A stretch of DNA of 64,000 nucleotides from a virus (lineage: Duplodnaviria; Caudoviricetes). The stretch is taken from positions 64,001 through 128,000 of IMG/VR virus record IMGVR_UViG_3300035498_000530, one strand, 5' to 3'. The position numbers and the translations under genes are program-made. Under the pieces are notes generated by a model that worked only from the letters and a program-made list of their open reading frames with translations, was not told the DNA's origin and did no database searches. Shown in pieces: positions 4,114 to 25,237 of the stretch; position 1 is the stretch's first letter; each line of letters starts with the position of its first letter.

Positions 4114-4164
4114 CTTCCTTATATAAATACTTTACTATAATGTTTAATGTACCGAAAATGGACA

Positions 4165-4286
4165 AAAAATAAAAAAGGGGTGCCGTAGGATATCTATCCT
4201 ACGGCAAGTTCTTGTAATGAAAAATGACTATAGTTTAAACACTAAATACTTAAACACAAGGAGTATTTATTGCTTTTTACTTCATC
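4165..4286 (-). ncRNA. Candidate small RNA (~120 nt)
   Basis: Promoter AACT-ATACAA-TG (4297-4286); internal hairpin 4243-4269 with CCUUGUG loop; terminator 4181-4206 plus U-tract; no ORF. Confidence 0.5.
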
Positions 4287-4314
4287 ATTGTATAGTTAGT
4301 ATTGTAATAATTTA

Positions 4315-5049
4315 TTACACATCTTGTATTTTGATAAGTAAAGACTTTAAGTAGCTTAATGTATCAGCTGCAAAATAGTTATACTTTTCAAATTTAGATT
4401 CAAATAACAAAGAATTTTCATAAAGATGTAAATTATCCAAAGCATTTTCTGGATCATCAATGTTATTTACTCTATAGTTTAAAGATAATAACACATCATG
4501 AAGATATTGTATTAATCTTTTTGCTTCTTCTTTATCTACATTATCAGGAACTCTATGATCAATATTGATCTGTGTATCACTTGTATCTTTTTGCTTAATA
4601 GTAAGCTCGTAATCTTTAAGAAGATCTAATGAATAATTATATAAGAACTCTGTTGCAATATTAAGAATATCGCATATAGGTCCTTCTTTCATATTGCTAC
4701 TATTTAAAGATCCAGAATTTGTCAAATCAATAAATCGCCTAATATATTTATCTTTTTTAGGATCATATTCTTCCATAGATATATTTCTATCAAATTCATG
4801 CTTATCTACTATATACTCATCAAGTTCCCAACCCCTTTTCATAATTTGGTGCATCTCAATATTTGAAATTCTACAAGCATGAATTATAAGATGTATTGCA
4901 TCTACATAACTAAATTTAGAATTCTTTATATACTTATCGTAATCTATAAGTGATACTAATTCATAAACAGATATAATATCTACATCTGTATTCATTGCCT
5001 TCTTCAATATTGAAATTGTTGCTTCTTTAAGTTTCATGTAGTTTTCCAT
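4315..5049 (-). CDS. Hypothetical protein, paralog family A
   Basis: Shares EYDPKKD.YIR and DI.NIATE.LY..SL.LLKDYE with 5049..6722. Confidence 0.8.
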   Translation of the reverse strand: MENYMKLKEATISILKKAMNTDVDIISVYELVSLIDYDKYIKNSKFSYVDAIHLIIHACRISNIEMHQIMKRGWELDEYIVDKHEFDRNISMEEYDPKKDKYIRRFIDLTNSGSLNSSNMKEGPICDILNIATEFLYNYSLDLLKDYELTIKQKDTSDTQINIDHRVPDNVDKEEAKRLIQYLHDVLLSLNYRVNNIDDPENALDNLHLYENSLLFESKFEKYNYFAADTLSYLKSLLIKIQDV

Positions 5050-6722: not shown

Positions 6723-6821
6723 TTTCGTTGTCCTCCTTATTGATCTTATAGTGTATTATATAACTTCTGTTATACAGATCTATAATATATAGTCAAAGCA
6801 TATTTAAATTATAAAAAATAA

Positions 6822-6849
6822 AACCCTAGAGCTATTACACTCTAGGGTT
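6822..6849 (-). terminator. Intrinsic terminator (CCCTAG family)
   Basis: AACCCTAGAG...CTCTAGGGTT stem followed by a U-tract on the minus strand. Confidence 0.8.
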
Positions 6850-6888
6850 ATTATTACAATAATATCAAGACTCATGCTTTGAATCTAT

Positions 6889-8322: not shown

Positions 8323-8409
8323 AGTAGTTTCCTTTCTTGTATCTTAGTAGATACCTATGTATTATTATTTAGCTCAACATAATTGCTATATTATTACTAT
8401 TATAATATG
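8323..8409 (-). promoter_or_regulatory. Conserved early promoter + structured 5' leader, copy 1
   Basis: CATATTATA; UAGC-AAUUAUGUUGA-GCUA; AAUAAUACAUAG; GUAUCU-ACUA-AGAUAC; SD AAGAAAGGA. Confidence 0.8.
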
Positions 8410-8440
8410 TAACCATATGTACTAAGAATAGCAAAAAATA

Positions 8441-8468
8441 AACCCTAGTAGAATGAACTACTAGGGTT
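8441..8468 (-). terminator. Intrinsic terminator (CCCTAGTAG family)
   Basis: AACCCTAGTAG-AATGAA-CTACTAGGGTT. Confidence 0.85.
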
Positions 8469-8502
8469 ATTATTAATCAACAACATTAGTGCTTATGATC
8501 AT

Positions 8503-9642
8503 TTATTTTCTTCCATCATATGATGGAAAATTCTTATCTGGTGCTACAGTATTTAAATTATCCATCCAAGAAGTATTTCTATTATTAAATAAAGCCGCAC
8601 CAGCATCATATGGATTATTAGAATTAGACTCTAATGATGAAACTCTATATTCATCTTTACTTAATGAGAATATAGAATCTTTTATAGATTCGATAAGCTT
8701 TTGAGAAATATATAATAAAAATTCTTTTTCATTCTTAGACATTCTTGATCTTTTAATAGAATCTTCTATATTTTCAATTTCAGAAGAAGCATTTACATAA
8801 TTACGTTTCTTAAATATAGTAAATCGCAAATTATCTTTAATTGAGTCATATGGCATATTAAGTTCTTTACAAGAAGATATAGACTCAAGTAATTTTATTA
8901 TAAATTCATATGATTTTTGTTTTGGCTGGTATGATTCATCAAAGTATTTTGAATATTCATCATCAAATAACTTAAAATACTCATAAGTTTGTTTATCATT
9001 ATTACGACTCTCTAAATTAATCATTAGATCATATATTCTTGAATAATGGGCTGGATTTTGTCTATATAAAAATAAGGTGAATGGTATTTCATCTGTTTTA
9101 TCATCCAGATTATAATTAGCAACATAAGTTGCAAGATAGTATCTAAATATATCTGGTATACTATCATATATAAACTTTGCCAATAGTATATAATTAGGAG
9201 TTTTGCAATCTCCTAAAAATTGTTTAATATCAAACTTTCCCTTAAAAGCATAGCACCATGAACAATTATATATTCTTTCACCATTTGCGCCAGTATAATT
9301 AGTATTATATAAAATACTGTATAATATATCTACTTTATTTACATTAACACCCTGATTATATAAAGATTCAGCATTTAAAAGTTCATAATGCGGTATTTGA
9401 AGATATTTAGTATAAAAATCATCTGATGATCTTATATATTTACTGATTGGATCAATAATCCTATAAAAATCATCATTTATGGTTTTATAATTTGAATTAT
9501 CAAACAAATCTATAGTTGTACCTTCATATAAAGCAATAGTTAAACTACTCATAAATTCATGATATGATCTTTGATTAGAAATGATATCATATAACTTATA
9601 ATTATAATTTTGAGTATTGTTGCAATTTTCTTTCTTGTCCAT
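8503..9642 (-). CDS. Hypothetical early protein, paralog family B
   Basis: IPDIFRYY and EIENIEDSI...KEFLLY align with 6889..8322. Confidence 0.85.
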   Translation of the reverse strand: MDKKENCNNTQNYNYKLYDIISNQRSYHEFMSSLTIALYEGTTIDLFDNSNYKTINDDFYRIIDPISKYIRSSDDFYTKYLQIPHYELLNAESLYNQGVNVNKVDILYSILYNTNYTGANGERIYNCSWCYAFKGKFDIKQFLGDCKTPNYILLAKFIYDSIPDIFRYYLATYVANYNLDDKTDEIPFTLFLYRQNPAHYSRIYDLMINLESRNNDKQTYEYFKLFDDEYSKYFDESYQPKQKSYEFIIKLLESISSCKELNMPYDSIKDNLRFTIFKKRNYVNASSEIENIEDSIKRSRMSKNEKEFLLYISQKLIESIKDSIFSLSKDEYRVSSLESNSNNPYDAGAALFNNRNTSWMDNLNTVAPDKNFPSYDGRK

Positions 9643-9735
9643 AATTCTTATCCTTTCTTGTATCTTTTAAGATACTTATGTACATATTTATTATTAGCTT
9701 AGTACAATCGCTATATTTTATACTAATATAATATG
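9643..9735 (-). promoter_or_regulatory. Conserved early promoter + structured 5' leader, copy 2 (divergent loop)
   Basis: CATATTATA; UAGC-GAUUGUACUAA-GCUA; AUGUACAUAA; GUAUCU-UAAA-AGAUAC; AAGAAAGGA. Confidence 0.75.
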
Positions 9736-9767
9736 TGGTTAAATGGCATTTAACAAAAAATAAAACC

Positions 9768-10325
9768 CTAGTAGTATGAACTACTAGGGCTATTACTAAT
9801 CATAATATTAATATTTAAGTATTTACTACCAAATTCTTTTTCTAAATCTTCTAATATTTCATCTAACCATTCCATACGATTGTAAATAGGTGTAACAGGA
9901 TAAGTATTATTATTTTGCTCAATCTCAATAATAGGACTTATAGTAGGAATTAATGTTTTAATAGGTTTCAATTGATTATATTCTTCTGATCTATGAATTT
10001 CAGCTATAACATAGTAATCATAGAATCTATTTTCTCCTATATCATTAGCAGATTCTATAGTAGAATAGTCATCGCCTATATCTATAATCTTAAATCCGTA
10101 TCCATCAATATTGTTCAAGGAACATAGTTTATTAGTAATTCCAATACCAAAATCACTATATCTCCACTTTACATATTCATACTCTATATAATAGTATGGA
10201 GTTTCTTTTCCATTACCACTATAATACTTTATTGTATCTGCATAAGATAACTCTCTATAAAGATTCTTTATCTCTTCAAATGCTTTATTTTCGCATAATA
10301 TTATTACCTGAGATCTGAATCCCAT
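9768..10325 (-). CDS. Hypothetical protein
   Basis: 185-aa ORF; its stop lies inside the terminator hairpin 9766-9789. Confidence 0.75.
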   Translation of the reverse strand: MGFRSQVIILCENKAFEEIKNLYRELSYADTIKYYSGNGKETPYYYIEYEYVKWRYSDFGIGITNKLCSLNNIDGYGFKIIDIGDDYSTIESANDIGENRFYDYYVIAEIHRSEEYNQLKPIKTLIPTISPIIEIEQNNNTYPVTPIYNRMEWLDEILEDLEKEFGSKYLNINIMISNSPSSSYY

Positions 10326-10837
10326 AATTGATCATCCTTTCTATCTTCATCTTCTTCATAAATTATAGACATTGCTGATTCAATATCAAGACTAAAAATA
10401 TCAGTTTTATCTTGATATATAATTGGATATACAACTACAGACCTAATAACACAATCGTATTCGGGATGAGCATCACTAAATATATCTTTATTATGATTGT
10501 ATAATGCTATTGCTTCTGTTTTTGCTTCGTGCAGTGATGTGTAAATATCAGTACTATGACAAACAAAAGTACCCTGTCTAAATCCATCTACATGAAATAC
10601 TTCTGTAAATTGCCCAAAATAGTAAGTATTTGATTCTGGTTCCAGAAGCATTATAGTTTTAATAGAAGATTCATCATCATCCCATCTATCGGACTCTTTT
10701 AAATACTCTATTAATTTTTCTTTAGACTCAGAGAAACAATCAACAAGTCCATATACATTATTATACATTTTATGATAATGAATATAGAATAACTTTCTTT
10801 TGATTTCTCTTACATTGTCCTTGGTTTCAGCATCCAT
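10304..10837 (-). CDS. Hypothetical protein, family C (one SESKE domain)
   Basis: FSESKEKLIEYL...LEPESNTYYFG. Confidence 0.8.
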   Translation of the reverse strand: MDAETKDNVREIKRKLFYIHYHKMYNNVYGLVDCFSESKEKLIEYLKESDRWDDDESSIKTIMLLEPESNTYYFGQFTEVFHVDGFRQGTFVCHSTDIYTSLHEAKTEAIALYNHNKDIFSDAHPEYDCVIRSVVVYPIIYQDKTDIFSLDIESAMSIIYEEDEDRKDDQLWDSDLR

Positions 10838-10839
10838 AT

Positions 10840-11751
10840 TTAATCATCCTTTCTATTATATCCAGTTGTAAAATAATTGTAACGTTGAAAATGATAAATG
10901 CCATCTTCTTTGAATTTAACGCTTCTGTATAAATATATACATTTATACATATACTCGACTCTTTCATATCTAGAATCGCATTTACCATAAAAATTATCCA
11001 TAATCCTTTTGGTATCCTTTATTGCTTCTCTATATGAAACATATATGGTTGGAGACCAAGCGCTAACAATAGGATCATCATCTTCACTAGTATTTGAATA
11101 CCAATGGCTTTCTGTAATAAAATATGATGATGATTCTGGAACTCTTATAGTACTTATATAGCTATCATTATAATAACCATCAATATTATTACGTTTATCT
11201 GTAAGATACTCTATTAATTTTTCTTTAGATTCTGACATTACTCTGCATGCATCTCTAAAATAAATATAAAAAGTTTTAATTTTATTATCATCTACATTAT
11301 CATCGTAATCCAGGAGTTCAATATTACTATCTTCATAATAGTCTCCAATTTCTTCAGAATGAACTTTAGATATTATAATAACAGTTTTATATGCTTCCTT
11401 TCCTTCCTTAAAATGATTATTATACAATTCATTAGATTTGACTTTTGCATAATCATAATCTGTATATACATTATCATAATAGTTCAAAGCATCACAATTA
11501 TCAGAACATATTGTATTCCAATAAACTGCCTCTGTATATCCTGACTGATAATAAGTTTCAGCTTCAGGAAGATATATTGTTTCTACAATAGGATTATCCA
11601 CACACTGCAGAAGATTTGATACTTGATCTTCTGATTTGCATATAAATCTCACTCGCCTACCAGAAACAACATTAATTCCCTTTTCATATATTGCATAAAG
11701 CATCTCTACGCAATTATTCTTTATTGGATTGGTTTTTCTTTCTTCTTCCAT
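10840..11751 (-). CDS. Hypothetical protein, family C (two domains)
   Basis: KSEDQV...LPEAETYYQSGY and MSESKEKLIEYL...VPESSSYF. Confidence 0.85.
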   Translation of the reverse strand: MEEERKTNPIKNNCVEMLYAIYEKGINVVSGRRVRFICKSEDQVSNLLQCVDNPIVETIYLPEAETYYQSGYTEAVYWNTICSDNCDALNYYDNVYTDYDYAKVKSNELYNNHFKEGKEAYKTVIIISKVHSEEIGDYYEDSNIELLDYDDNVDDNKIKTFYIYFRDACRVMSESKEKLIEYLTDKRNNIDGYYNDSYISTIRVPESSSYFITESHWYSNTSEDDDPIVSAWSPTIYVSYREAIKDTKRIMDNFYGKCDSRYERVEYMYKCIYLYRSVKFKEDGIYHFQRYNYFTTGYNRKDD

Positions 11752-11835
11752 AATTTGTCCTTTCTTGTACTTATTGTACTTATGTATTATTTAATGACTC
11801 AACATAATTGTCATATTATACAAATCTATAATATA
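11752..11835 (-). promoter_or_regulatory. Conserved early promoter + structured 5' leader, copy 3
   Basis: TATATTATA; AUGAC-AAUUAUGUUGA-GUCAU; AAUAAUACAUAA; GUAC-AAUAA-GUAC; AAGAAAGGA. Confidence 0.8.
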
Positions 11836-11868
11836 TAGTCATATGGTATTTAAATTATAAAAAATAAA

Positions 11869-11894
11869 ACCCTAGTAGAATGAACTACTAGGGT
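11869..11894 (-). terminator. Intrinsic terminator (CCCTAGTAG family)
   Basis: ACCCTAGTAG-AATGAA-CTACTAGGGT, same core as 8443-8466. Confidence 0.85.
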
Positions 11895-11902
11895 ACTTTT
11901 AT

Positions 11903-12334
11903 TTAGTCTTCGATAGTGCTTATAGTTTCAAGAACATAAGCATCTTCTCCTCTGCCTTTGATAAGCATATATAATGTTTTCTCTGATGATTGCAATTCAT
12001 ATGTCTGATTTTGTCTGCAAAACATACCTTTATTATTTCTATAAAGATCTTCAAGATTCTCTTTAGATTTAGTAGATAATATGCAGATATTTCCATAATA
12101 TGGAATAAATTTTTCGTCTCCTTCATCATTAGAGACCCATTCAGCATATTCAGCTTGATAATATGCATCTTGTTCTGGAAGTCTCAAAGTTATTAATCTT
12201 TTATTAATATCTTCTTGATTCTTCCATCTTTTGCTTATATATTGATATACTAGTTCTTTTGACTCAGACATGTATCTTACAAGGCCTCCGTCATTATAAG
12301 CATAAAATATCTTTGAATTTCTATCAAATAACAT
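11903..12334 (-). CDS. Hypothetical protein, family C (one domain)
   Basis: YMSESKELV...LRLPEQDAYYQAEY. Confidence 0.8.
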   Translation of the reverse strand: MLFDRNSKIFYAYNDGGLVRYMSESKELVYQYISKRWKNQEDINKRLITLRLPEQDAYYQAEYAEWVSNDEGDEKFIPYYGNICILSTKSKENLEDLYRNNKGMFCRQNQTYELQSSEKTLYMLIKGRGEDAYVLETISTIED

Positions 12335-12336
12335 AA

Positions 12337-13218
12337 TTAGTTATCCTCTTTTCTTATTACTTTACTAAGACTCTTATAGTTGTTAAGACAATAAAAGCCG
12401 TCTCCATCTTCTTCATATGAATATATAGTCACGTTACCAAAAAGATATTTGTATTTATTAGAAGTAATTTTATTATCTTCATAAATATCAAATGCTCTTC
12501 TTTCTGCTTCAGCGGCTGATAAACAAACGTTAGTATTATAAGATTTAGACATAACAGGATTTTTACCAAAACTAAACCATTCTTCATAGCATCCTATATA
12601 ATAAATATCACTACTTGGAAGTTTCAATTCAATTATTGCATCTTTATTGATGTTATTCCAACTTGATATTTCACTAATAAGATCTTCTTTAGACTCTGAC
12701 ATTATTCTTATTACACCCTGTTCAACATAAGCATAAATCGTTTTAAAATCTTTATTATCAGTATCCTTTTTATCATCTATATATTCAGTATTAGTAACTG
12801 CATAGTATTCCCCAATATAGCGAGTATTTACTTTGGATATTGTGTTTATTACATTATATGACTCTACTCCTTCTTTAGAATGATCATTATATAATCTTTC
12901 ACCATCCATTACAGCATCATTATAGTTTGCATATACATCACCATAATATTCAATAGTATCACGAACATAATCTCTATTTACTTTACGATAAATTACTTCA
13001 TGATATCCCGCCTGATAATATACATCTGATTTTTGAAAGTGGAGTTTCATAGCACATAAATTTTTATTTCTCAACAGTTTAAATGCCTGATCCTCTGAAT
13101 CACTTAAATATTTGATTTTAAAGTGACCTTCTGATAATGAATAACGTACTACATAATCATCTTTAGTTTCATTTGCATTTTCGTTTTCATTAACTTTCAT
13201 TTCTTCATTTTCTTCCAT
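12337..13218 (-). CDS. Hypothetical protein, family C (two domains)
   Basis: Colinear paralog of 10840..11751 (SEDQ...YYQAGYHE; MSESKED...LPSSDIYY). Confidence 0.85.
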   Translation of the reverse strand: MEENEEMKVNENENANETKDDYVVRYSLSEGHFKIKYLSDSEDQAFKLLRNKNLCAMKLHFQKSDVYYQAGYHEVIYRKVNRDYVRDTIEYYGDVYANYNDAVMDGERLYNDHSKEGVESYNVINTISKVNTRYIGEYYAVTNTEYIDDKKDTDNKDFKTIYAYVEQGVIRIMSESKEDLISEISSWNNINKDAIIELKLPSSDIYYIGCYEEWFSFGKNPVMSKSYNTNVCLSAAEAERRAFDIYEDNKITSNKYKYLFGNVTIYSYEEDGDGFYCLNNYKSLSKVIRKEDN

Positions 13219-13306
13219 AATCTTGTCCTTTCTTGTACTTATTGTACTTATGTATTATTATTTAGCTCAACATAATTGCCATATTATTATACAGATCTAT
13301 AATATA
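13219..13306 (-). promoter_or_regulatory. Conserved early promoter + structured 5' leader, copy 4
   Basis: TATATTATA; UGGC-AAUUAUGUUGA-GCUA (G-U pair); AAUAAUACAUAA; GUAC-AAUAA-GUAC; AAGAAAGGA. Confidence 0.8.
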
Positions 13307-13374
13307 TAGTCAAAGTATATTTAAATTATAAAAAATAAAAGACTGCCATAAGACAGTCTTTATTTATTAATCAA

Positions 13375-14553
13375 TCAGTAATGTACATTATACATATTCT
13401 CATAATCCCGAACAATACTATCCATGAAAATTAATTTTTTCTTTTCTTTGTTTAAATATGTATTATTATTAAAATACAACTTATCATACATCTCATCAGA
13501 AATTGTATCTTTGATTGATTCTTCATATTCTTTCATTACCCTATAGCACTCCTTATAAAGTTCTATTAATCCCTTTCTAATACCAGAATTATAATCTTTA
13601 TCAAAAAGACTAATGTTTGATATAATATAAATCATTTCATCAATAAACTTTGTCATATCTTCAAAATTAACCCTATTTATTATTACAGGCATTGAATTTT
13701 CTGATGATGGCTGCTTTACTACATATCTATGATGCTTATAAATCAATATAGCCTCAACCAATGCGTATATATATGTCAGCATAGCATTTAAAGACTCTTC
13801 ATCATGTAAACCACGACTTTCATTAAAATAACTCTGTATTTTGTTAGCATCTATTGTAGGTTTTGGTTTATTGTTTAATGAAAAAGGATCATAGTAATCT
13901 GGTGCTGGATGCATTATAGTATTGTATATATCAGTATGCTCAGATTCTGATATTTCAATATATGAATGAAAACTAATAACCCATTTAAAATTAAGCGGAT
14001 TTCTCTTAGTAAATTTCTCAAATATATTATCAAAATGTATATGTATATATCTTTGAATAATACTAGGAGCCATGTATGCAAAGATTGACATAAAAGCGGC
14101 AGAAGAATTAGTTATTTCATCTTTCTTATAATTTTCATAATTTCTTATATTGGTATATCTAATATTATTTGGATTGATCAAATTACGAGCTATATTAGTA
14201 TAGAATATATTGGATCGATTATCATTTATCAATCTATCCTGTAAATAATTAAAAAATCCATCAGGATCACGATAATTAGATTTATTGTATTCATAGTGGT
14301 ATCTAATAAATTCATCATCTGAAACAGAATACAGCATTTTAAACTCTTTAGAATCCACATTATCTTTAATAGTATTTATAAATTCTATAAAATAATTATA
14401 AACTATTGGATCATCAGACATATATGGTTCTACGTACTTCCAAATACTGTCTACATCATTTTTACGATATATCATATTTGCAATATCTCGTGTAAATTTG
14501 TAATACAGTGTTGAACTTGTCATGATACTAAAAATAGTTTTCTTTTCTTCCAT
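13375..14553 (-). CDS. Hypothetical early protein, probable family B
   Basis: KFTRDIANMIY and APSIIQRY resemble family B motifs. Confidence 0.8.
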   Translation of the reverse strand: MEEKKTIFSIMTSSTLYYKFTRDIANMIYRKNDVDSIWKYVEPYMSDDPIVYNYFIEFINTIKDNVDSKEFKMLYSVSDDEFIRYHYEYNKSNYRDPDGFFNYLQDRLINDNRSNIFYTNIARNLINPNNIRYTNIRNYENYKKDEITNSSAAFMSIFAYMAPSIIQRYIHIHFDNIFEKFTKRNPLNFKWVISFHSYIEISESEHTDIYNTIMHPAPDYYDPFSLNNKPKPTIDANKIQSYFNESRGLHDEESLNAMLTYIYALVEAILIYKHHRYVVKQPSSENSMPVIINRVNFEDMTKFIDEMIYIISNISLFDKDYNSGIRKGLIELYKECYRVMKEYEESIKDTISDEMYDKLYFNNNTYLNKEKKKLIFMDSIVRDYENMYNVHY

Positions 14554-14643
14554 AATCTTATCCTTTCTTATATCTTCTTAAGATACCTATGTATTATTTA
14601 ATGACTCAACATAATTGTCATATTATTATACTACTATAATATA
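14554..14643 (-). promoter_or_regulatory. Conserved early promoter + structured 5' leader, copy 5
   Basis: TATATTATA; AUGAC-AAUUAUGUUGA-GUCAU; AAUAAUACAUAG; GUAUCUU-AAG-AAGAUAU; AAGAAAGGA. Confidence 0.8.
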
Positions 14644-14710
14644 TAATCATGTATACTAAAAATAACAAAAAATAAAACCCTAGTATTAATTACTAGGGTT
14701 ATTATCTTGT

Positions 14711-15253
14711 TTAAACTGATTCTTTTTCAGTTAATAATCTTAATCTGATTTCTCTCATCTTATCTGCACTCAACTCAGGTTTAGAATAACTGCTTATATT
14801 TATATTATCAAATAATCCAATAGCAAGTTGTAAATCTTGTTCATAAGTATATTCATCTTTTTCAATATCAGATTGGTACTTCTCTTGGTTGTGCACATGA
14901 TGTTCCTTAAGAAGTATTAATGTAATCCCTCTTAAAACATTTTCAACTATATTACCATAAATAATATGATAATCGCTAGGTAAATTTTCTTTAACTTTAC
15001 TTACAAGAATATTATGTAATTTAGTTATGCCTTCATCTGTAAACATATCATCAATGTTTCTATCTTTTGACAAATAATGAAAAATATATAATTCCTTTAA
15101 TCTATTTTCATAAATCTCAATAGTATTATTGATACATTGTTCTACTTCAGCCTTGATATATTCATCAAAATTAATTTGTTCAGTTAATCCACGTCTAATA
15201 CGTTCAATTGATTCTTCGCTTAATTTTCCATTACACATGTTTTCTTTATTCAT
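14711..15253 (-). CDS. Hypothetical early protein (start corrected to MNKENM at 15253)
   Basis: The SD AAGAAAGGA and the conserved leader sit just upstream of ATG 15253; the track start (15277) falls inside the leader hairpin. Confidence 0.8.
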   Translation of the reverse strand: MNKENMCNGKLSEESIERIRRGLTEQINFDEYIKAEVEQCINNTIEIYENRLKELYIFHYLSKDRNIDDMFTDEGITKLHNILVSKVKENLPSDYHIIYGNIVENVLRGITLILLKEHHVHNQEKYQSDIEKDEYTYEQDLQLAIGLFDNINISSYSKPELSADKMREIRLRLLTEKESV

Positions 15254-15340
15254 AACTTTTTCCTTTCTTGTACTCATTTGTACCTATGTATTATTATTTA
15301 GCTCAACATAATTGCTATATTATTATACTACTATAATATG
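15254..15340 (-). promoter_or_regulatory. Conserved early promoter + structured 5' leader, copy 6
   Basis: CATATTATA; UAGC-AAUUAUGUUGA-GCUA; AAUAAUACAUAG; GUAC-AAAUGA-GUAC; AAGAAAGGA. Confidence 0.8.
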
Positions 15341-15369
15341 TAATCATTGTAATTATATTTAACAAAAGA

Positions 15370-15404
15370 TATCCCTAAGGAATTTACTATGTTCCTTAGG
15401 GATA
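15370..15404 (-). terminator. Intrinsic terminator
   Basis: TATCCCTAAGGAA-TTTACTATG-TTCCTTAGGGATA; core repeated at 25847-25875. Confidence 0.8.
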
Positions 15405-15409
15405 AATGT

Positions 15410-15744: not shown

Positions 15745-16200
15745 TTATACCTCCGATGTGTTATTTTCGACTATCAAGTCAGTTACTCCTAAATATATGT
15801 AATGAGCAATTATATCAAATGGATCACTAAAATACATAAATAATACAGTTAATATCTGATCTGATATTCTATATTTAACACGACTGAGGACTTGCTTTCG
15901 AAGATCCATTTCATCTTCTTCTGTAAGATATTCTTTATTCTGAATCGTCGTAGGATTCAATATTAATACTTCTTTTATAGATTCATCTACAATAAGCTTT
16001 ATATATTCTATAGTATTCTTATATCCTTGAACTATATCAAGCTGAGATACCATAGTATTAGATGTATATATAGCTTTTCTCTCAAAGAATAATGAGATAA
16101 GAGCTTTTCCAATGAAGTACATTCCTGTATATAATATTACAAAGAATACTATCATCATAATAGCCATAAATATCTGGTAATTAAGCATCGTATATGTCAC
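15745..16200 (-). CDS. Hypothetical membrane-anchored protein
   Basis: N-terminal hydrophobic helix IFMAIMMIVFFVILYTGMYFIG. Confidence 0.75.
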   Translation of the reverse strand: MTYTMLNYQIFMAIMMIVFFVILYTGMYFIGKALISLFFERKAIYTSNTMVSQLDIVQGYKNTIEYIKLIVDESIKEVLILNPTTIQNKEYLTEEDEMDLRKQVLSRVKYRISDQILTVLFMYFSDPFDIIAHYIYLGVTDLIVENNTSEV

Positions 16201-17341
16201 CTCCTAATGATCTTATGTATGGAGTTAATACTTTATCTAAAGACAAAGCATACTTTCTTATCTCATCCTGAGCATGTGGATCTGTTCTTAACTCTATAAA
16301 CTTCTTATAATTACCCAAAGTCATAGTCATATACAATTCATAACAGTTTGTATTATTAAGAAGTACTGCTCTAGCATCTTCTTTTTTAATACCCTGTGAT
16401 ACTAAATTTGAATAATTATTAGTAGCATTGTAAAAGAGAAGATTACATAACTGACTGAATTCGAATTCTCCTTCAAGACCTTCAACACTATATAACTGTC
16501 CTTTATAAGCATCCGGATTAGGAACAGTAAATGAAGCATGAGAAGAATCTACATATCTCTGACTCTGCTGAGTAATACCATTTCTATGTCTTACTAATTG
16601 ATGAGTTGCTGTTCTAGAAGCATTAATGAATCTTACAGTTACAGTACTAGTATTAAGTATATCAAGTGGAAGATTTCTATATCTATTATTAGATATCTCA
16701 GAAAATGTAGTATCTCCTGATATAATCTCTACATACTTATCATCTACACCAAATAACTTCTTTCCTTCTTCTTTCAATTCTTCATTAAGCTTCTCTATAT
16801 CTTCTGGACTATATGTATTCAAGCTATCTGACTCTGAAAATACATCAAATTCACTAATCGGGAATGTTTCTGCATAATCAACAGATCCAAATAAATCTTT
16901 TCCCCATGATGTATTTTCTATTATAGCTATAAGCATTTCTTCTATAATTAAGCATATTGAATCATCATCATATAACTTTGAATCTGCATATACCATATTA
17001 AATAAATGGATATATCCTCTAATAGATCCACTTATAATAATAGATGCTAACAAATCTTCATTCTCATAAGAATAATCCTTCAACTGGAATACGTTAAGAT
17101 ATTTACAATATGTAAGTAATGTAATTATATCTTCCAAACACAAAGCATAAGAGATATCAACTCTCATAGATATATTAGAGTGCTCTAATACGCTAGTATG
17201 ACCACTCTTTATTCTTCTCTTAATATAATCAAGTTTACCTTCTCTATCCTCAGGTAATTTAGTATTATAGCATGATGAGCATGCCTTACTACAAATATCA
17301 ACAGCATCATTATATCCTAAAATCTCTATATCTACACACAT
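16181..17341 (-). CDS. thyX: FAD-dependent thymidylate synthase with a large central insertion
   Basis: GHTSVLEH; SRTATHQLVRHRNGITQQSQRY; EDARAVL; LRTDPHAQDEIR. Confidence 0.9.
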   Translation of the reverse strand: MCVDIEILGYNDAVDICSKACSSCYNTKLPEDREGKLDYIKRRIKSGHTSVLEHSNISMRVDISYALCLEDIITLLTYCKYLNVFQLKDYSYENEDLLASIIISGSIRGYIHLFNMVYADSKLYDDDSICLIIEEMLIAIIENTSWGKDLFGSVDYAETFPISEFDVFSESDSLNTYSPEDIEKLNEELKEEGKKLFGVDDKYVEIISGDTTFSEISNNRYRNLPLDILNTSTVTVRFINASRTATHQLVRHRNGITQQSQRYVDSSHASFTVPNPDAYKGQLYSVEGLEGEFEFSQLCNLLFYNATNNYSNLVSQGIKKEDARAVLLNNTNCYELYMTMTLGNYKKFIELRTDPHAQDEIRKYALSLDKVLTPYIRSLGGDIYDA

Positions 17342-17342
17342 A

Positions 17343-18089
17343 TTATTTATCCTCCCTTGATTCGTCTATTATACGTTTTATAATATCCATTACATATGAA
17401 TTGAAATAATCAGTAACTTCTCTATTTTCATCAAAACATGAAAGACTATCTACAAGCAATAGCATACTACGACCTGGAATCTTAGCATAGTCTTTTGAGT
17501 ATTCATGTATCATATAAAACTTTTCACTATAGTGATAGTCATATACTTTAGAAAGATAGTCAGTATTACTCTCTATCTTATCTAATTTATCTGTTCTAGC
17601 TTTCATTAATTCTAAAGCTTTATCATAACTTTGTCTAAGAAGAACTACAAGATTTGGTAATGGTATACCAAATTCATTGTGTTCCATATTAGTTATGATA
17701 TTATAATCTTCTATATCATTAGCTTGATATATTATATTTGATAAAGTCCATCTATCTGTAACTATGATAGCATTCGGATCTTCAAATATTTCTTTATTTT
17801 TCATAACAGTATCGAATCTATTCATACAATAAAAGTATGCTGGGATCTTGCCTGTAAATTCAGATGGATCTCCATATACTCCATTTACATAATTCCTTAC
17901 AAATATAGATTCTTCTGCTCCATATGTTATACTATTAAAGAGATATACCTTTGCCTCAGGATATATCTTTTTCAATAAACCTACAACAATAACTGCTATT
18001 GTTGATTTAAAACTGTAATCTGGACCTTCAAAGTCTATTATAGTAGCTTTACAATCTACCATAGGACTTGTAGATCTAGTATTTTCCAT
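17343..18089 (-). CDS. tmk: Thymidylate (dNMP) kinase
   Basis: P-loop EGPDYSFKST, TDRWTLSNIIYQ, PNLVVLL; adjacent to thyX. Confidence 0.8.
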   Translation of the reverse strand: MENTRSTSPMVDCKATIIDFEGPDYSFKSTIAVIVVGLLKKIYPEAKVYLFNSITYGAEESIFVRNYVNGVYGDPSEFTGKIPAYFYCMNRFDTVMKNKEIFEDPNAIIVTDRWTLSNIIYQANDIEDYNIITNMEHNEFGIPLPNLVVLLRQSYDKALELMKARTDKLDKIESNTDYLSKVYDYHYSEKFYMIHEYSKDYAKIPGRSMLLLVDSLSCFDENREVTDYFNSYVMDIIKRIIDESREDK

Positions 18090-18146
18090 ATAAATCGACC
18101 TCCATATTTTATATTTATTTTAAAGTTCTTCCAGTATTATATTATT

Positions 18147-18283
18147 AAACAAAGGAGCGCCCAGTAGACCGATCCTACTGGGCATAATTTGTAACAATAC
18201 ATACAAGAAAGGTTTAATGGAAATCTTATATTCCAACTTATGAAACTTAAGGGACATTTATGGACAATATTTTATTGACCCTC
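18147..18283 (-). ncRNA. Candidate trans-acting sRNA antisense to the conserved early leader
   Basis: Promoter AACA-TATAAG-TG (18294-18283); terminator stem 18159-18183; contains UUCCAU-UAAA-CCUUUCUU-G-UAUGUAUUGUU. Confidence 0.65.
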
Positions 18284-18312
18284 ACTTATATGTTATTAGT
18301 TTATAATATTTT

Positions 18313-18591
18313 ACAAAGTGTATCCCGTATGGGGTCATAACTTCCATACGGGATAGGAGAAATTGTATGCATGAACCATGCCATACCTGATACGCATTAA
18401 CCAATGGAATGGAAAATGTGTTTTTGTTGTAAGGTTTAATTTTATCGCAATCTCAGGAACAGAGTAGAATATGATATAGTATTGTGTATTTTTATATTGA
18501 TTTGAGGATTGTTATAAAACATGTATAAAAAGTAACAATAAAATTTTGTAAAATCTTTATACTATATCAATCTTCTGTTATATTAAACCTC
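18313..18591 (-). ncRNA. Candidate rod-shaped structured RNA (~280 nt)
   Basis: Promoter AACA-TATATT-TG (+1 at 18591); nested stems 18432-40/18582-90, 18472-81/18560-69, 18508-14/18533-39; terminator 18321-18355. Confidence 0.65.
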
Positions 18592-18621
18592 AAATATATG
18601 TTATTAGTGTATAATTTTTTA

Positions 18622-18838
18622 CAAAAGAAATCCCGTATGGCTCACAGGTACCATACGGGATATATCTAAGGAAAATAAGCAGCAAAATGGCAAGTCAAGT
18701 CGCTTTCCAAAGGGTGCACCTTTATATATTTACAAGGAATTTTTATTGAATAGAAATGTATTAGATTTGTAAAATTAAGTAAATGCTACAATACTACATC
18801 CTTACCGGAAGCAAGTCGGCTATTTTATACTTATCTTC
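18622..18838 (-). ncRNA. Candidate small RNA (~215 nt)
   Basis: Promoter AACA-TTTATT-TG (+1 at 18838); terminator 18630-18661 with the same TCCCGTATGG stem as 18321-18355; no ORF. Confidence 0.55.
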
Positions 18839-18863
18839 AAATAAATGTTATTCTTGTAATAAA

Positions 18864-21800
18864 TTATTGTAACTTCTTTTCATGAAGCATTGGTTCGTAT
18901 TTAATACCCATTATATCTTTTACAGACCTTGCCAATTCTACAAGAACTTTATTTATACCACCAGATACTTCAATAGAACATACCATTCTACTACTTACTG
19001 AAAGTGTAGATAAGAATAAGTCTATTGGTTCTTCTGGTCTGAATGAACTATATGGTTCTTTTCCTTCTGGGAATATATCTTTACAAACAGCTTTAAGAGC
19101 TGACTGAGTAACAAGCTTATCACCTACAGAGAAGTCATCTTGGTACTTAATGTAAAATTCAATCTTAACACCATCTGAAGTATCCTTTAATTTACCAGTT
19201 GGAGCAAGTTTTTCATCTGAACCAAAGTTTGGAGTTACAGCATAATCATTAACAGATCCTTTAGCTGCTTTCTTTAATTTCTTAACTCCAGATTCATAAG
19301 AATTACATATCTTCTTCAATGAAGGAGATAATTCTTCTGTATCTACAGTTCTATATACTTTAATATCTTGTACAATACCGGTATTCTTAGACTTTATAGG
19401 AATTCTACCGATATCTGATACTATTTCTTCATCATCAGAAAGTTGTTTAAGAAGAGCATTCATATCATCTTCATCAAATGTATTCTGGAATAATATGAGT
19501 GTTTCGCCTTCCTGAATATTCTGTCCTTTCTTTACCATAGATAATACATTTGTCGTCTTAGGTAAAGTTACTTCTTTCTTTACTACTACATCTGAAGACA
19601 ATGCTTTAGATAACCATGGTGATACAATACCAGAGTCTTCATAACCTTCATCTGTAGTTATAATAGCTACTTTAGCAAGAGTACCTATCTTATATCCTAT
19701 ACTATTAGGATTTCCTATTTCATTGGAATATGATGATTTATCATATGCTAATATCTGATTTGGTTTTACTTTAGATCCTTTCTTTAAGTCAGAATCTAAC
19801 TTAAGAGTTACATAGAAACCACCATCAGAGTTCTTTTCAACTCTTTCTCTAAGATCTATAAACTCTGTTGTATTATTATTATATTTCACTTTAAGATATT
19901 CTGGAGTTGCTTCTATTACTTCTCCAGCACCTTTAGCCTTATGAGCAAATATATCTGTAGTCAAATATGGTAATGCTTCGTCTGCACCATTGGTAATCAA
20001 TGCAGGAGAAGATTTTCTAACTCTCATACCATGTTTTGCTGTCTGTACAAATGTCATAGCAGATCTAAATGGATCATCATGCGTAGTACCAAATGGAGTA
20101 AGTGCTTCTGTCATACACATAGATTTAACACTACCCATATCTTCTTTAGATCCAGATTTTAAATATCCTCTACTATTACCAACACCCATATCTATAGTAG
20201 CCTGTCTAGTAATACCTACATTGCCAGCAAAACCAGTAGACATAGCTAATACATTTGTCATTGAATCGTCAAACGTACGTTTATCAAGACCATAGCTTCT
20301 TTCTGAGTTCATACCAGATAATCCCTTAAAGGTTACTGCATTAGAAGTCTCTATTTCAAGAAGTGGTGTAAGAATAGATGCATCTGCCATCGTAGGATCA
20401 AGCATTACAAGATCTATTACAGCAGACTGTTTCATAGTCATAGGAGCTTTTTTAGTTCTCTTTAATTGATTTCTATAAGCACCATATGATTGTGCTAAAG
20501 CTTTATATACATAACCAGCAACAATTTCATTCTTTCTAAATCTATTACCAGATATATCTACATGCTTATTATATTTATTATCAGTAAGTAATCCATTAGC
20601 ATAAGCCAATGCTGTTACATAATCTGACGGTAAATCAAAGTCTTTACATACAGATACCGTTATAGGATCCATCATCAAATCATAGAAGTTATCAAGACCA
20701 TCTGCTTTAATTCTTCCACCAAAGTTATCTAACTGTTCTACCCATGTAGATTTCTTATTAAGATCTGCTATACTCATTTCATTAGTATCACATATTCTAA
20801 GACCATTCATAAGAAGATCTGCACTTGCTGTTGATTCATAATATAATAAACCATCTTTAAATTTGATTTTATCATACATACTAGTTTCAAAGTCAGGATT
20901 CTTCTTTTCAAAAAGTCTATAATTTATATTAGCTTTATTAAGAGCTGATACCAATCCTTCAGCATGAGCCATAACTACTATAGTTGGTATCTTTGAATCA
21001 AGAATACTACAAACTGAATAAGCACAGTTGCTTGGTGCTGAAGTATCATCATAATCTCTTTGGAATTCTTCGCTAGATTGACATAATAAGTTAACTAAAT
21101 ATGTTGAGAATCTATCTCCAGATTCTTGACCAAAATATAATAACTTACTATTCTCTTTAGTGTAAACAACTGGAATACCATATTTTAAATCATACTTATA
21201 ATTCTTTCTGATCTCATCTTGGTTAAGATATATAATAAAATCTTTAGTTTCAATTTTACTAAATGCTCTTCCTATATCTACATAATCCATTGGAAGATCG
21301 TATTTAATAGATATCTTTTCTGTATTACCTTCGGTAGCATCAATATCTTTATATCTATTCTTTGTAAGAAGCTTAATTACTTTATTAGCAGCTACATTAG
21401 ATTTACCAACAGAATTATTTTGTATCTGCAAGAAAATCTTATTATAGTTTGATACAATTTGGCATACATCTGGGTCTGTTTTTATTATTGGTAATAATAA
21501 TAATTGACCCTGGATTGATTTTAGGTTGCCTCTGAGCCTCATAAACTGATTGTCTACGAACAGTGGAACGTCAAATTTGAGCTTGAAGCGCTGTCCAAGT
21601 GCATCTTCACAGTCAAGTGTCCAAGTCTCTATTAAATCCTCAGATGTGGATGTATTTTGTACATCCATAGATCTAACCACTACAGGTATAGTTTTATCTT
21701 TAAAGCTATTTATAATCTTTACAATATCTTCATTTATATCATAAGTCTCATTAAATTTAGCATAACTAAGATGTTTCCATTCTTCATTAATACTATCCAC

Positions 21801-23363
21801 AGGAACAGAAGTTTCTTTAATCTCTTTAGGTTTATCTTCTTCAAGATAATCTTTTACTGTTTTATTATGGACTTTAATATTATCAAAAGATTTACCTACT
21901 TCAGATAATCTCTTACTTCGAGCAGCATTTATCTTAATAGTATTTTCTTCATCTTCTGATACTGTATCCATAATTTTAGATATATATTCATTATTAGATA
22001 ATTTATCTACAGCATCTTCTACAGAATTACTAGAATTAGCCACAGCTTTAATATTATCCAATAATTCTTCCTTAAGTTCATCAGATATTTCTTTCTTAGC
22101 TTTAGTTTCATTCTTATTAATATTTGTAGTTTTTTCTGGTCTTGCTTTCTTTACACTTGTTTGCTTTTTATTATCTGGAGACATAGAAAGTACTGATATT
22201 TCTTTTGGCTTAATTGTTCCAGATTTACCAGTAAGTCCTTTATACTTAATTGGTCTTTCATTATTTTCAAGACTATCAGTAATAGTTGCAATAATAACTT
22301 TTGGAGAATCTGTATCTGGGTCTCCTAAATCATCTGTATTTGCATCTTTTGCTATTACTCTTTTTATAAGATTAATGAACTTTATAGATTTAGTTTTATC
22401 AAAGTCTTTAAAATCCATCTTAAAGTAATTATTTTCTCCTACGAAGATTATATTAAATCCTTTAAGGGTTTCTTGGACATGTTCTGGATATCTATAAGCC
22501 ATTCTTATTATAACTGATACTGGATTAATAGTTTTCTTATAATCCCACATATTACCATTCTTAATATTCCAATCCAATATAGGAATAAATATAGTTTTAT
22601 GTGTATATCCATATTGATCATATCTGCCATCATTAAGAAGTCTTATCATAAAATCATAATAAAGCTGTACAGCTTTGTCAGCTTTCCAGAAATTATTCTT
22701 AAAGAATGCTTCAGTATAATATGATAAATCAGCAAATAAGTTAAGTCCTTTATATAATTTAAGATTACTAAAAGTCTTCATTATAAATGGACATTCAGCT
22801 TTAACCTCTTTGTATATATCAAATACATTCTTATTAGTTTTAAGTCTTTCATTATATAATAACTTTCTTAATTGTGTATCATTCTTACCGTCTTCGGTTA
22901 AATATGCATCTCTAAATATAGTAATAGCATTTCTTCCTCTGAGATATTCATCTGTCATTTCACAATCTTTAGATATAAATGTAGGTCTATAATCTATATC
23001 TTCATTTACAGATTCTACATTATTTATTATATCTGAATTATATAATAAATCTTCAACAGATTCTTCTAATTCTACCGATTCAGAATCTGGATATAATATA
23101 TTATATCTATTATCTACTGGAGCAGATTCCTGTAGATAATTCTTACTGTTTATATAATAAGTAACATCTTTATCAAGATAGTAAGCCTGATAAGATTTTG
23201 CTCTATTTATAAACATTGGATTTTTCATAAGATTAATACTAGATTTAAAATTTGGAGTCAATAAGTAAATCATAGCACCATGTTTCTTATCATTCTCGTT
23301 TATTGGTAATAAGCATTTCTTCTTAAGTAATTTATTTGGAATTACTTCATCTAAAAATAGCAT
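18864..23363 (-). CDS. Multisubunit RNA polymerase beta subunit (split, N-terminal/main part; probably the virion RNAP)
   Basis: GNVGITRQ, TPFGTTHDDPFRSAMTFVQ, GYEDSGIVS, VGDKL, PIDLFLSTLSVSSRM; ends before the beta C-terminus; late-type promoter AACT-ATAAAA-TA upstream. Confidence 0.9.
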   Translation of the reverse strand: MLFLDEVIPNKLLKKKCLLPINENDKKHGAMIYLLTPNFKSSINLMKNPMFINRAKSYQAYYLDKDVTYYINSKNYLQESAPVDNRYNILYPDSESVELEESVEDLLYNSDIINNVESVNEDIDYRPTFISKDCEMTDEYLRGRNAITIFRDAYLTEDGKNDTQLRKLLYNERLKTNKNVFDIYKEVKAECPFIMKTFSNLKLYKGLNLFADLSYYTEAFFKNNFWKADKAVQLYYDFMIRLLNDGRYDQYGYTHKTIFIPILDWNIKNGNMWDYKKTINPVSVIIRMAYRYPEHVQETLKGFNIIFVGENNYFKMDFKDFDKTKSIKFINLIKRVIAKDANTDDLGDPDTDSPKVIIATITDSLENNERPIKYKGLTGKSGTIKPKEISVLSMSPDNKKQTSVKKARPEKTTNINKNETKAKKEISDELKEELLDNIKAVANSSNSVEDAVDKLSNNEYISKIMDTVSEDEENTIKINAARSKRLSEVGKSFDNIKVHNKTVKDYLEEDKPKEIKETSVPVDSINEEWKHLSYAKFNETYDINEDIVKIINSFKDKTIPVVVRSMDVQNTSTSEDLIETWTLDCEDALGQRFKLKFDVPLFVDNQFMRLRGNLKSIQGQLLLLPIIKTDPDVCQIVSNYNKIFLQIQNNSVGKSNVAANKVIKLLTKNRYKDIDATEGNTEKISIKYDLPMDYVDIGRAFSKIETKDFIIYLNQDEIRKNYKYDLKYGIPVVYTKENSKLLYFGQESGDRFSTYLVNLLCQSSEEFQRDYDDTSAPSNCAYSVCSILDSKIPTIVVMAHAEGLVSALNKANINYRLFEKKNPDFETSMYDKIKFKDGLLYYESTASADLLMNGLRICDTNEMSIADLNKKSTWVEQLDNFGGRIKADGLDNFYDLMMDPITVSVCKDFDLPSDYVTALAYANGLLTDNKYNKHVDISGNRFRKNEIVAGYVYKALAQSYGAYRNQLKRTKKAPMTMKQSAVIDLVMLDPTMADASILTPLLEIETSNAVTFKGLSGMNSERSYGLDKRTFDDSMTNVLAMSTGFAGNVGITRQATIDMGVGNSRGYLKSGSKEDMGSVKSMCMTEALTPFGTTHDDPFRSAMTFVQTAKHGMRVRKSSPALITNGADEALPYLTTDIFAHKAKGAGEVIEATPEYLKVKYNNNTTEFIDLRERVEKNSDGGFYVTLKLDSDLKKGSKVKPNQILAYDKSSYSNEIGNPNSIGYKIGTLAKVAIITTDEGYEDSGIVSPWLSKALSSDVVVKKEVTLPKTTNVLSMVKKGQNIQEGETLILFQNTFDEDDMNALLKQLSDDEEIVSDIGRIPIKSKNTGIVQDIKVYRTVDTEELSPSLKKICNSYESGVKKLKKAAKGSVNDYAVTPNFGSDEKLAPTGKLKDTSDGVKIEFYIKYQDDFSVGDKLVTQSALKAVCKDIFPEGKEPYSSFRPEEPIDLFLSTLSVSSRMVCSIEVSGGINKVLVELARSVKDIMGIKYEPMLHEKKLQ

Positions 23364-23407
23364 ATACTTACCTCCTTTAATTTATCTTATTTTATAGTTC
23401 AATTTGC

Positions 23408-23774
23408 AAAAAAGGATGAGATAGGCATTTCTGCCTATCTCATAGAGGTGTTCATTTAGGTTAAATAATATATATCATATCATAGTCAGTGTCTGGAACA
23501 TTGTGTGCGATTGTCTATATTATTTTAATTTTTCGGAGGTTAACTTTTGTAATTGAAAGCAATTCGTGAAATTTTTAGTTATTGCACCGAAAGCGTTGTT
23601 ATATTTTGGCATTTATTGTTTGTTTTTATTTAACCTAAATGTGAAAAATGTCTATAGATTATATTTATCTCAATTATATATCTATCTTTTGTGCATTATT
23701 TATAAATACTACATAATTGTGTACGCAGGTTTTAAAAGGAAACTTTGTAGTATCTGATCCTATATAATCTATTT
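23408..23774 (-). ncRNA. Candidate structured RNA (~370 nt)
   Basis: Promoter AACA-TCTAAT-TA (+1 at 23774); stems 23654-64/23762-72 (11 bp) and 23453-68/23626-41 (16 bp); terminator 23416-23443. Confidence 0.65.
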
Positions 23775-23799: not shown

Positions 23800-24205
23800 C
23801 AGATTTGGTTTTCCCTCTCTCCCCCCTTACACCCCCCTCTCTCTCTTTCCATCTTAATTTTTATTATACTATATTATGCCTCATTGGACTTTTACTATAT
23901 TATTTTATCCTTCTCTCTTTTATACGTTTATTTCTTAAGTATTATTATTTTATTACCAATTGGTATATTACTATCTGCTCGCTCGGCGCTCGCTTTAGGG
24001 TTTTCTTTTTCTATACCTATTGGGCTCTCTACTGTTTGATTTTACCCCCCTACCCCCCATGGTAACTTTTTACCATGAGGAGTAATGAGTGATTTGCTAT
24101 CCAAAAACTGGTACCAATATAGATACTATAGCCCCTATGGAATCTATCTTTGAAATATACGGTAGGTCTCCAGTCCAACACAATAGCCAGTCCGTCGCTC
24201 TCTAT
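23800..24205 (-). other. G-rich non-coding element at the divergence point; candidate replication origin / primer RNA
   Basis: C-runs on + at 23813-23846 and 24045-24058; GC-rich CTGCTCGCTCGGCGCTCGCT at 23975-23994; promoter AACT-AAAAAG-TA (+1 at 24205). Confidence 0.4.
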
Positions 24206-24235
24206 ACTTTTTAGTTATGTACTAAGTATTTTTTT

Positions 24236-24434
24236 ACAAAAGAGGACCAGGTAGTCCGAGTGACTACCTGGATTTTTTGGATGTTTGAGATCCACATTTT
24301 GGCTGAGTGTGTTAATTTGTGTTTCTCTTTGTTGACATGAACTAAGAAAGGAACAAACCTTGATGTGCGTAAACAAGTGAAAATTACATTCCGAGAAGGT
24401 ACTTTTAAATAGCAATCATATAATAATCCCTTGT
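24236..24434 (-). ncRNA. Candidate small RNA (~200 nt)
   Basis: Promoter AACA-TTATAA-TA (+1 at 24434); terminator 24247-24271; anti-SD GUUCCUUUCUUAG. Confidence 0.55.
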
Positions 24435-24455
24435 ATTATAATGTTATGTACTGTA

Positions 24456-24967
24456 TAAAATAAAACCCGAAGGATTTTTATTATCCTTCGGGCATAATAT
24501 TATTGATTGCTGAAATAATTGTTATTGTTAGCATAGAACTATGCTTGTATAAATATAATTTTACTTATTATTTTTCCGCATATTAAATTACTATAGTTAT
24601 AATCTGCTGTCTCGCACGAAATATAGGTACTATTATATAGTAGTATTTCATATAAGCGTTTTTGTTATTCACACTAAATAAAGCAATTAATATTTTTGTT
24701 TTTGTTTTTGAAAGTTACTGTTAATTGGGGACAAAAACCCTTGCTATGTCTTTGCTTTATAATAGTAGTTATGAGTAATAACATGTGAGTGTTTTTTATG
24801 TTTTTACGCATAGTTTCAGCAATAAATATTATGGATACTTGATACTTTGACTATAGATTTATGACGTTCCCCTCTTTGAAAATGATTGAACTTACTTAGT
24901 TCTTTAGTGTAATTACTTTATGAGATTGCTAAATCACAATTTTTTCGGTCAAATTATTTTTATACCT
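24456..24967 (-). ncRNA. Candidate long structured RNA (~510 nt)
   Basis: Promoter AACA-ATATAG-TA (+1 at 24967); long bulged stem 24493-24515/24814-24833; terminator 24466-24492; no ORF of 60 aa or more. Confidence 0.6.
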
Positions 24968-25002
24968 ACTATATTGTTAAGATACATATTAAAATATAAA
25001 TA

Positions 25003-25054
25003 TATATTATAAACCTGTAATGTAATAAATATATATTACAAAAACTATACAATA
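25003..25054 (+). promoter_or_regulatory. Rightward promoter cluster
   Basis: TATATTATA (25003-25011), TATATTAC (25032-25039), AACT-ATACAA-TA (25043-25054). Confidence 0.6.
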
Positions 25055-25072
25055 AGAAAGAGGTGATCTAAA

Positions 25073-25192
25073 TTGACTAAGAAGGACTTTTTAGACATAA
25101 TAACAACTTATGACCCGAAAGAACTAAATGATCTAATCAAAGAGAAGGGTAAAAAGCCTAAAATCATAACCCCAATTATATTCTTTGATTGA
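25073..25192 (+). CDS. Small protein (39 aa), below the ORF-track cutoff
   Basis: SD GAGGTGA, TTG start, MTKKDFLDIITTYDPKELNDLIKEKGKKPKIITPIIFFD. Confidence 0.7.
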   Translation: MTKKDFLDIITTYDPKELNDLIKEKGKKPKIITPIIFFD

Positions 25193-25237
25193 TATATAGA
25201 TCAAGAGAGGGTAAATAATAGAAAGGAAAGATAACTT

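Follow-up and report, generated by a model that had tools for sequence, protein, structure and literature searches.

What does viral DNA that is 93% coding hold in a 774-nt gap between two genes of the same orientation? The gap lies within a window of 64,000 nucleotides, the whole stretch of DNA that was analysed, which is the reverse complement of bases 8087-72086 of one 167,464-bp virus contig (30% GC; completeness ~68% by CheckV estimate; 131 genes and 93% coding content by a simple ORF call). Spanning 18090-18863 on the minus strand, it separates an RNA polymerase (RNAP) gene from a thymidylate kinase gene, and is the contig's second-largest gap and the largest among gaps between co-directional genes. 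The initial annotation had recognized this gap, sizing it at 770 instead of 774 nt, and had divided it into a tandem array of three promoter-payload-terminator cassettes. The flanking genes are:

18864-23363, minus strand: RNA polymerase beta-like gene, 1499 aa (phrog_3148/14872 'RNA polymerase beta subunit', E 7e-134)
17343-18089, minus strand: thymidylate kinase gene, tmk (PF02223, E 1.4e-8)

The nearest cultured relatives of the 1499-aa RNAP, at ~30% identity, are found in Listeria phage LPJP1, the PBS1/AR9 group, Staphylococcus jumbo phages and phiR1-37. By its sequence the source phage is an uncultured AR9-like giant phage with an AR9/PBS1-like RNAP. A homologue of AR9 gp226, a non-virion RNAP subunit according to the annotation of the AR9 record, is encoded outside the window at genome positions 150301-151500 (plus strand; 24% identity over 412 aa, E 5e-10); it was caught by tblastn, having been missed by the initial genome search. 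The window also contains a single ORF of 7033 aa (29898-50999, plus strand), exceptionally long for a phage gene. The gene next after tmk encodes ThyX (the two together span 16181-18089, minus strand), a protein of 386 aa whose Thy1 domain is confined to residues 221-368. Encoding both ThyX and Tmk, the phage may have thymine-based DNA; the pair is unexpected in a phage with uracil DNA such as AR9 or PBS1. The AR9 enzyme reportedly reads uracil-containing promoters, and possible thymine DNA counts against the late-RNA reading of the gap given below.

In AR9, 94 mapped late transcription starts fit AACA-(6N)-TA/G, transcription beginning at the last base; roughly twelve G starts appear in Table S3 of that study, of which several gave a high signal and which include strong promoters (Lavysh et al. 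2017, PMC5312081). Defining an AR9-type late promoter as AACA at -11 to -8, six bases, T at -1 and A or G at +1, we found one at the head of all three units (3/3), each in the form AACA-N6-TG. The three minus-strand starts that had been proposed earlier (18838, 18591 and 18283) coincide exactly with the G of these motifs.

18838-18849, minus strand: promoter P_A, AACA-N6-TG, +1 = G at 18838 (from sequence, by the AR9 late consensus)
18591-18602, minus strand: promoter P_B, AACA-N6-TG, +1 = G at 18591 (same basis)
18283-18294, minus strand: promoter P_C, AACA-N6-TG, +1 = G at 18283 (same basis)
18620-18838, minus strand: unit A, predicted ~218-nt RNA, rod-like, with its 5' end (18838-18828) pairing with 18681-18671 (motif and fold)
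18313-18591, minus strand: unit B, predicted ~279-nt RNA, with its 5' end (18591-18582) pairing with 18440-18431 (motif and fold)
18148-18283, minus strand: unit C, predicted ~136-nt RNA with two small 5' hairpins, an open stretch and a terminator (motif and fold)

The predicted lengths agree with the earlier sizes of ~215, ~280 and ~135 nt. One more AACA-N6-TG, the fourth, lies at 18568 without showing the T-W-T-A pattern of the real sites; it is probably a chance occurrence.

On the contig as a whole, AACA-N6-TR is 3.7-fold denser in intergenic than in coding DNA (3.56/kb vs 0.95/kb), and a similar excess was present in the relative G003 (4.55/kb vs 1.13/kb). Seven of the nine control patterns, built by shifting the spacing or permuting the letters, gave no intergenic excess; AACT-N6-TR was mildly in excess and is read as a promoter variant, and AAGA-N6-TR was commoner in coding DNA. 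The AACT-N6-TA variant lies 12-31 nt upstream of a Shine-Dalgarno (SD)-ATG start in 11 or more genes, RNAP and tmk among them. A sigma-70 promoter scan showed no excess (11 sites vs 14.4 expected). We also located 34 late-type sites close to genes, about 4-90 nt (most 12-60 nt) upstream of a start codon and mostly accompanied by an SD; 34/34 start with A (…TA-A) and 0/34 with G. Use of TG at this locus thus rests on analogy with AR9. A G at the predicted start occurs in the ORF-less units A, B, C and D and in those designated E and H, A to D being a single junction family, which makes the independent count small. This restriction to ORF-less units could point to a separate promoter class, or to G-start sites being weaker than assumed.

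The borders between units are copies of one another, much as the initial annotation had described. A direct repeat of 63 nt joins 18270-18332 and 18578-18640 at 83% identity, the second hairpin arms are also alike (18332-18355 vs 18639-18662), and a third copy consisting of the promoter only (J1, 18825-18858) shows 79% identity across 34 nt. Aligned locally with gaps, J2 (18662-18578) and J3 (18355-18270) scored 85 over 86 columns, against 17.0 +/- 2.8 for 1000 shuffles (z 24.6), and the alignment of J1 with J2 (z 7.1) was matched by 0/1000 shuffles. The module runs in a fixed order: terminator hairpin, tail, 20-nt spacer, promoter and the first ~14-15 transcribed nt.

18578-18662, minus strand: junction J2, the tA hairpin, tail, spacer, P_B and first ~14 nt of B (repeat and alignment)
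18270-18355, minus strand: junction J3, the tB hairpin, tail, spacer, P_C and first ~14 nt of C (repeat and alignment)
18630-18661, minus strand: terminator tA, 12-bp stem, -20.0 kcal/mol, tail TTTCTTTTGT (fold and scan)
18321-18355, minus strand: terminator tB, stem as in tA with another loop, -18.9 kcal/mol, weak T tail ACACTTTGT (repeat and fold)
18158-18184, minus strand: terminator tC, stem unrelated to tA and tB, -17.4 kcal/mol, tail CTCCTTTGTTT (fold and scan)

The tA and tB hairpins share identical stems (TCCCGTATGG/CCATACGGGA) around different loops, and the same stem recurs with a third loop at the end of a protein gene (genome 162679-162706). A simple terminator scan found 5 sites in 2 kb vs 0.5 expected, with tA and tC passing. 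The cassette layout proposed earlier is therefore borne out for the late-type promoter and hairpin of every unit and falls short in the T tail of unit B, which is poor enough that transcription of unit B may in part continue into C. We found no terminator between the RNAP stop codon and P_A, so unit A may also form the 3' UTR of the RNAP mRNA. A CRISPR-like guide array, with short regular repeats and evenly sized spacers, does not fit: the repeats are 86 nt long, hold a promoter and a terminator, and are spaced at 308 and 247 nt. Scanning other DNA with the junction pattern yielded 0 matches, scanning with the hairpin pattern yielded six unrelated phages of ~50% GC, and no similar DNA was found in a phage collection.

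Between these shared borders the inserts are mutually unrelated, as had been claimed; their pairwise local scores lie within the shuffle range (83/300, 111/300 and 45/300). No homologue of an insert was found in 980 kb of relatives' loci by blastn, nhmmer or tblastx, or in five whole relatives by blastn, and the sole match from these searches was a junction-like sequence in G003, where it heads another ORF-less unit. Rfam 15 gave nothing in the gap (a search of 17000-20000 at E up to 5 returned two chance matches, both outside it), and ARAGORN found no tRNA or tmRNA gene. A scan of 301 bacterial genomes from the family to which an uncultured Lachnospiraceae MAG (L074) belongs gave one non-trivial match: part of unit A (18684-18711, minus strand) agrees in sense at 27/28 nt with the interior of a SHOCT-domain gene (L085:1501-1528). 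With a weak protein-level E of 0.47 and a search-wide expectation of ~0.03, this is probably chance and not a pseudogene trace.

The same genome carries a solitary fourth member of the junction family:

4170-4297, minus strand: unit D, AACT-N6-TG, an ORF-less insert of ~125 nt and a terminator (J1 vs D z 4.4; J2 vs D z 5.4)

Downstream of unit D come an ordinary AACA-N6-TA promoter and then a gene, a layout like that of A-C. Two further ORF-less stretches with late promoters lie on the minus strand at 23388-23774 (~360 nt) and 24493-24967 (~470 nt); each ends in a hairpin right before a normal gene's promoter, and the first precedes the RNAP gene.

Among relatives, 55 IMG/VR loci carry an RNAP homologue at 40-57% identity. 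Homologous proteins with 80% (P0002) and 78% (P0003) identity exist; RNAP scans of viral, metagenome and genome contigs returned nothing closer than ~57%. The gap after the RNAP gene ranges in these relatives from -27 to 875 nt and is mostly below 100 nt, with a few ORF-less gaps among them. In L027 (RNAP 46% identity) the same slot after RNAP is occupied at 12312-12925 by two tandem late-promoter units without an ORF, which fold strongly (z -5.0 and -5.1) and have no Rfam match; L066 also carries an ORF-less late unit. The relatives' inserts are unrelated to one another and to those of A-C, indicating that the slot after RNAP is variable and that ORF-less late units recur in the clade. For the expandable array proposed earlier, these more distant relatives speak to variability of the slot and no more. 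An array on duplicated junctions was not seen elsewhere among the relatives examined (RNAP 40-57% identity).

Folding of whole units gave z scores of -4.6 for A, -4.5 for B and -3.2 for C, to which the terminators contribute much. Without terminators, the bodies scored -2.91, -2.93 and -0.68, and their reverse complements -0.26, -2.06 and 0.03, respectively. Coding windows as background have a mean z of -1.18, and 6.7% of them reach -2.9; the overall structure signal is modest against this genome background. The placement of the terminal helices is more specific. In A, a closing helix of 11 bp begins exactly at the predicted +1 (63/5000 shuffles), and no start offset between -40 and +39 gives a longer helix. 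In B the closing helix counts 10 bp when it starts at +1 and 11 bp when it starts at -1 (382/5000 shuffles). At their 5' ends A and B are paralogous, with several differences, and each partner strand fits its own version.

We lean, with some reserve, towards reading the gap as three discrete late non-coding RNA units (~218, 279 and 136 nt) bracketed by PeSL-like (promoter-early stem-loop) terminator-promoter cassettes. In its favor, the promoter motif equals the mapped late consensus of AR9 and is enriched between genes both here and in G003. The RNAP is AR9/PBS1-like, a gp226 homologue is encoded, and the hairpins are stable at -17 to -20 kcal/mol. The terminal helices of A and B begin at the predicted +1, the solitary unit D shares the layout, and ORF-less late units are present in L066 and L027. 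Inserts without homologues weaken the reading, since conservation and covariation then lend it no support. Under this model, the non-virion RNAP would begin transcription late in infection on the final G of every AACA-N6-TG and end it at the next hairpin terminator, yielding RNAs of ~218, 279 and 136 nt that would code for no protein, with A also produced as a 3' UTR on the mRNA of the preceding RNAP gene. The shared parts would be copies of one composite cassette, terminator plus late promoter, set around unrelated inserts. RNAs A and B would fold into closed rods in which the terminal helix begins at the first base, an arrangement that favors stability, and RNA C would be laid out like a base-pairing sRNA.

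The payloads had been called guide-like. We scored the ungapped pairing of each unit with positions -40 to +20 of all genes, using dinucleotide shuffles as the control. The best start-region match was equalled by 17/100 shuffles for A, 62/100 for B and 7/100 for C. The top six matches of unit C together were equalled by 1/100 shuffles; these six, being copies of one repeated leader, do not count as independent. Early genes on the minus strand at 4114-15409 of the window carry near-identical cassettes, each combining a terminator whose stem is of the CCCTAG type, an early motif like that of AR9 (TATATATTAT-N6-G) and a leader common to them; their terminator stems recur in families with differing loops. 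Scored against the early leaders, shuffles did as well in 103/300 cases for A, 111/300 for B and 18/300 for C (p ~0.06). Guide-like content is accordingly unsupported for A and B, which pair no better than shuffles and could not be given a target, and borderline for C, where the candidate seed is:

18194-18212, minus strand: candidate seed in C, 17/19 complementary to the Shine-Dalgarno region of the repeated early-gene leaders (18/300 shuffles)

A 15-nt match links the apical loop of unit A to the middle part of a gene of 889 aa; its E of 0.027 applies to a single query and loses significance once multiple testing is taken into account.

The repeated early leaders may have their ribosome binding site covered by RNA C, and translation of the early genes would then be damped in the late phase of infection; if transcribed, unit C would be a concrete candidate for the late shut-off of early genes. 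In a broader and rather doubtful proposal, A to D would be late non-coding RNA genes kept as a modular set, in which a portable cassette of terminator and G-start late promoter (four copies) lets recombination add or swap cargo, G starts mark RNA genes and A starts mark mRNAs, and at least one cargo, C, shuts off the early-leader regulon by masking its ribosome site.

The main competing explanation accepts the cassettes as real PeSL-like recombination modules or insulators and regards their cargo as dead, with the inserts being remnants of lost small genes or neutral filler and the RNAs functionless by-products. Inserts that resemble neither each other nor anything in relatives suit this idea, as does a slot that appears dispensable, given that most relatives have less than 100 nt after the RNAP gene. 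The targets of A and B do not rise above chance either, and the structure z scores reach only the 7% tail of the background. Against dead cargo, tblastx of the gap against relatives' loci detected no protein-level remnant, and filler of 774 nt that keeps three promoters and terminators intact would be costly in a 93%-coding phage. Neutral sequence also fits poorly with terminal helices that start at +1 and with a fold of A that is strand-specific. On balance we consider dead cargo possible, if on the unlikely side.

The discrete-unit reading also has to be weighed against a long regulated leader, in which three late promoters and leaky hairpins would tune or time the tmk-thyX operon by attenuation and read-through. 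Every element is co-directional with tmk, the T tail of tB is weak, and in AR9 the 5' UTRs reach as much as 491 nt and some genes have multiple promoters (PMC5312081). The position of the tmk promoter speaks against it:

18116-18127, minus strand: tmk promoter, AACT-N6-TA, predicted TSS 27 nt before the ATG (motif)

Because tmk has this promoter of its own, of a type found at 11 or more genes, RNAP among them, units A-C are unlike a tmk leader and a leader or attenuator role is less likely. In addition, three strong hairpins in series would leave little read-through, and the solitary unit D is likewise a unit followed by the downstream gene's own promoter. We judge the regulated leader improbable.

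Less probable still is an element acting as DNA, such as a replication origin, a packaging site or a recombination hot spot. AT-rich intergenic DNA with repeats and inverted repeats would suit such a role, but the GC-skew turning point and a divergent 822-nt gap both lie near 24,000-25,200 and not in the RNAP-tmk gap, each repeat element is accounted for as a promoter or terminator, and the fold of A is specific to the RNA strand. Least credible of all are very small proteins encoded in the inserts, since the ORFs of 20-45 aa that exist in the gap include none with a Shine-Dalgarno sequence, the longest cross terminators and promoters (the 45-aa ORF spans tC and the tmk promoter), and an exhaustive HMMER search with that ORF found 0 homologues among 1.84 billion representatives, in keeping with the earlier view of the payloads as ORF-less.

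Tandem sRNA arrays are familiar from bacteria, as in Listeria LhrC1-5 and Pseudomonas PrrF1/2, where head-to-tail promoter-sRNA-terminator units have bodies that are homologous paralogues. The units described here share the head-to-tail arrangement and differ in that only their expression signals are homologous, the bodies being unrelated. To our knowledge, non-coding RNAs have barely been charted in giant phages with transcription machinery of their own, and we know of none in the AR9-like group beyond antisense transcripts. AR9 itself offers the closest match in signals, with late promoters of the form AACA-N6-T(A/G) whose last base is the start, intrinsic terminators that end units, and late promoters that can drive transcripts other than mRNA (PMC5312081). 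The late non-coding RNAs reported there are antisense to genes, whereas those predicted here are free-standing tandem units on a duplicated junction, and here the G starts are confined to ORF-less units. In the jumbo phage 201phi2-1, ONT-cappable-seq identified 11 sRNAs, 3 of them intergenic, bounded by TSSs and TTSs (PMC11512511). These units too are short, lack a CDS and come from a giant phage that encodes RNAPs of its own; they were seen as RNA, whereas the gap units are predictions, and no tandem array with shared junctions was described (PMC11512511).

If untranscribed, the region would be a variable slot with duplicated regulatory signals. The nearest parallel to the cassettes themselves is the PeSL of T4-type phages, a repeated terminator stem-loop plus strong promoter found in variable regions with unrelated cargo (Arbiol et al. 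2010, PMC2839356). Both have a repeated composite of promoter and terminator (86 nt in J2/J3) and a slot that varies among relatives. PeSLs use host sigma-70 early promoters and carry ORFan cargo in hyperplastic regions, whereas the promoters here are of a phage-RNAP late type and the cargo is non-coding; we do not file the gap cassettes as PeSLs because they have no sigma-70 early promoter and their cargo is not ORFan genes. A PeSL would also be expected to show recombination between its copies, as indels or mini-circles. If transcribed, the phage-polymerase late promoter and terminator would constitute a reusable RNA-gene cassette, a non-coding counterpart of the PeSL modules that shuffle ORFans in T4-type phages.
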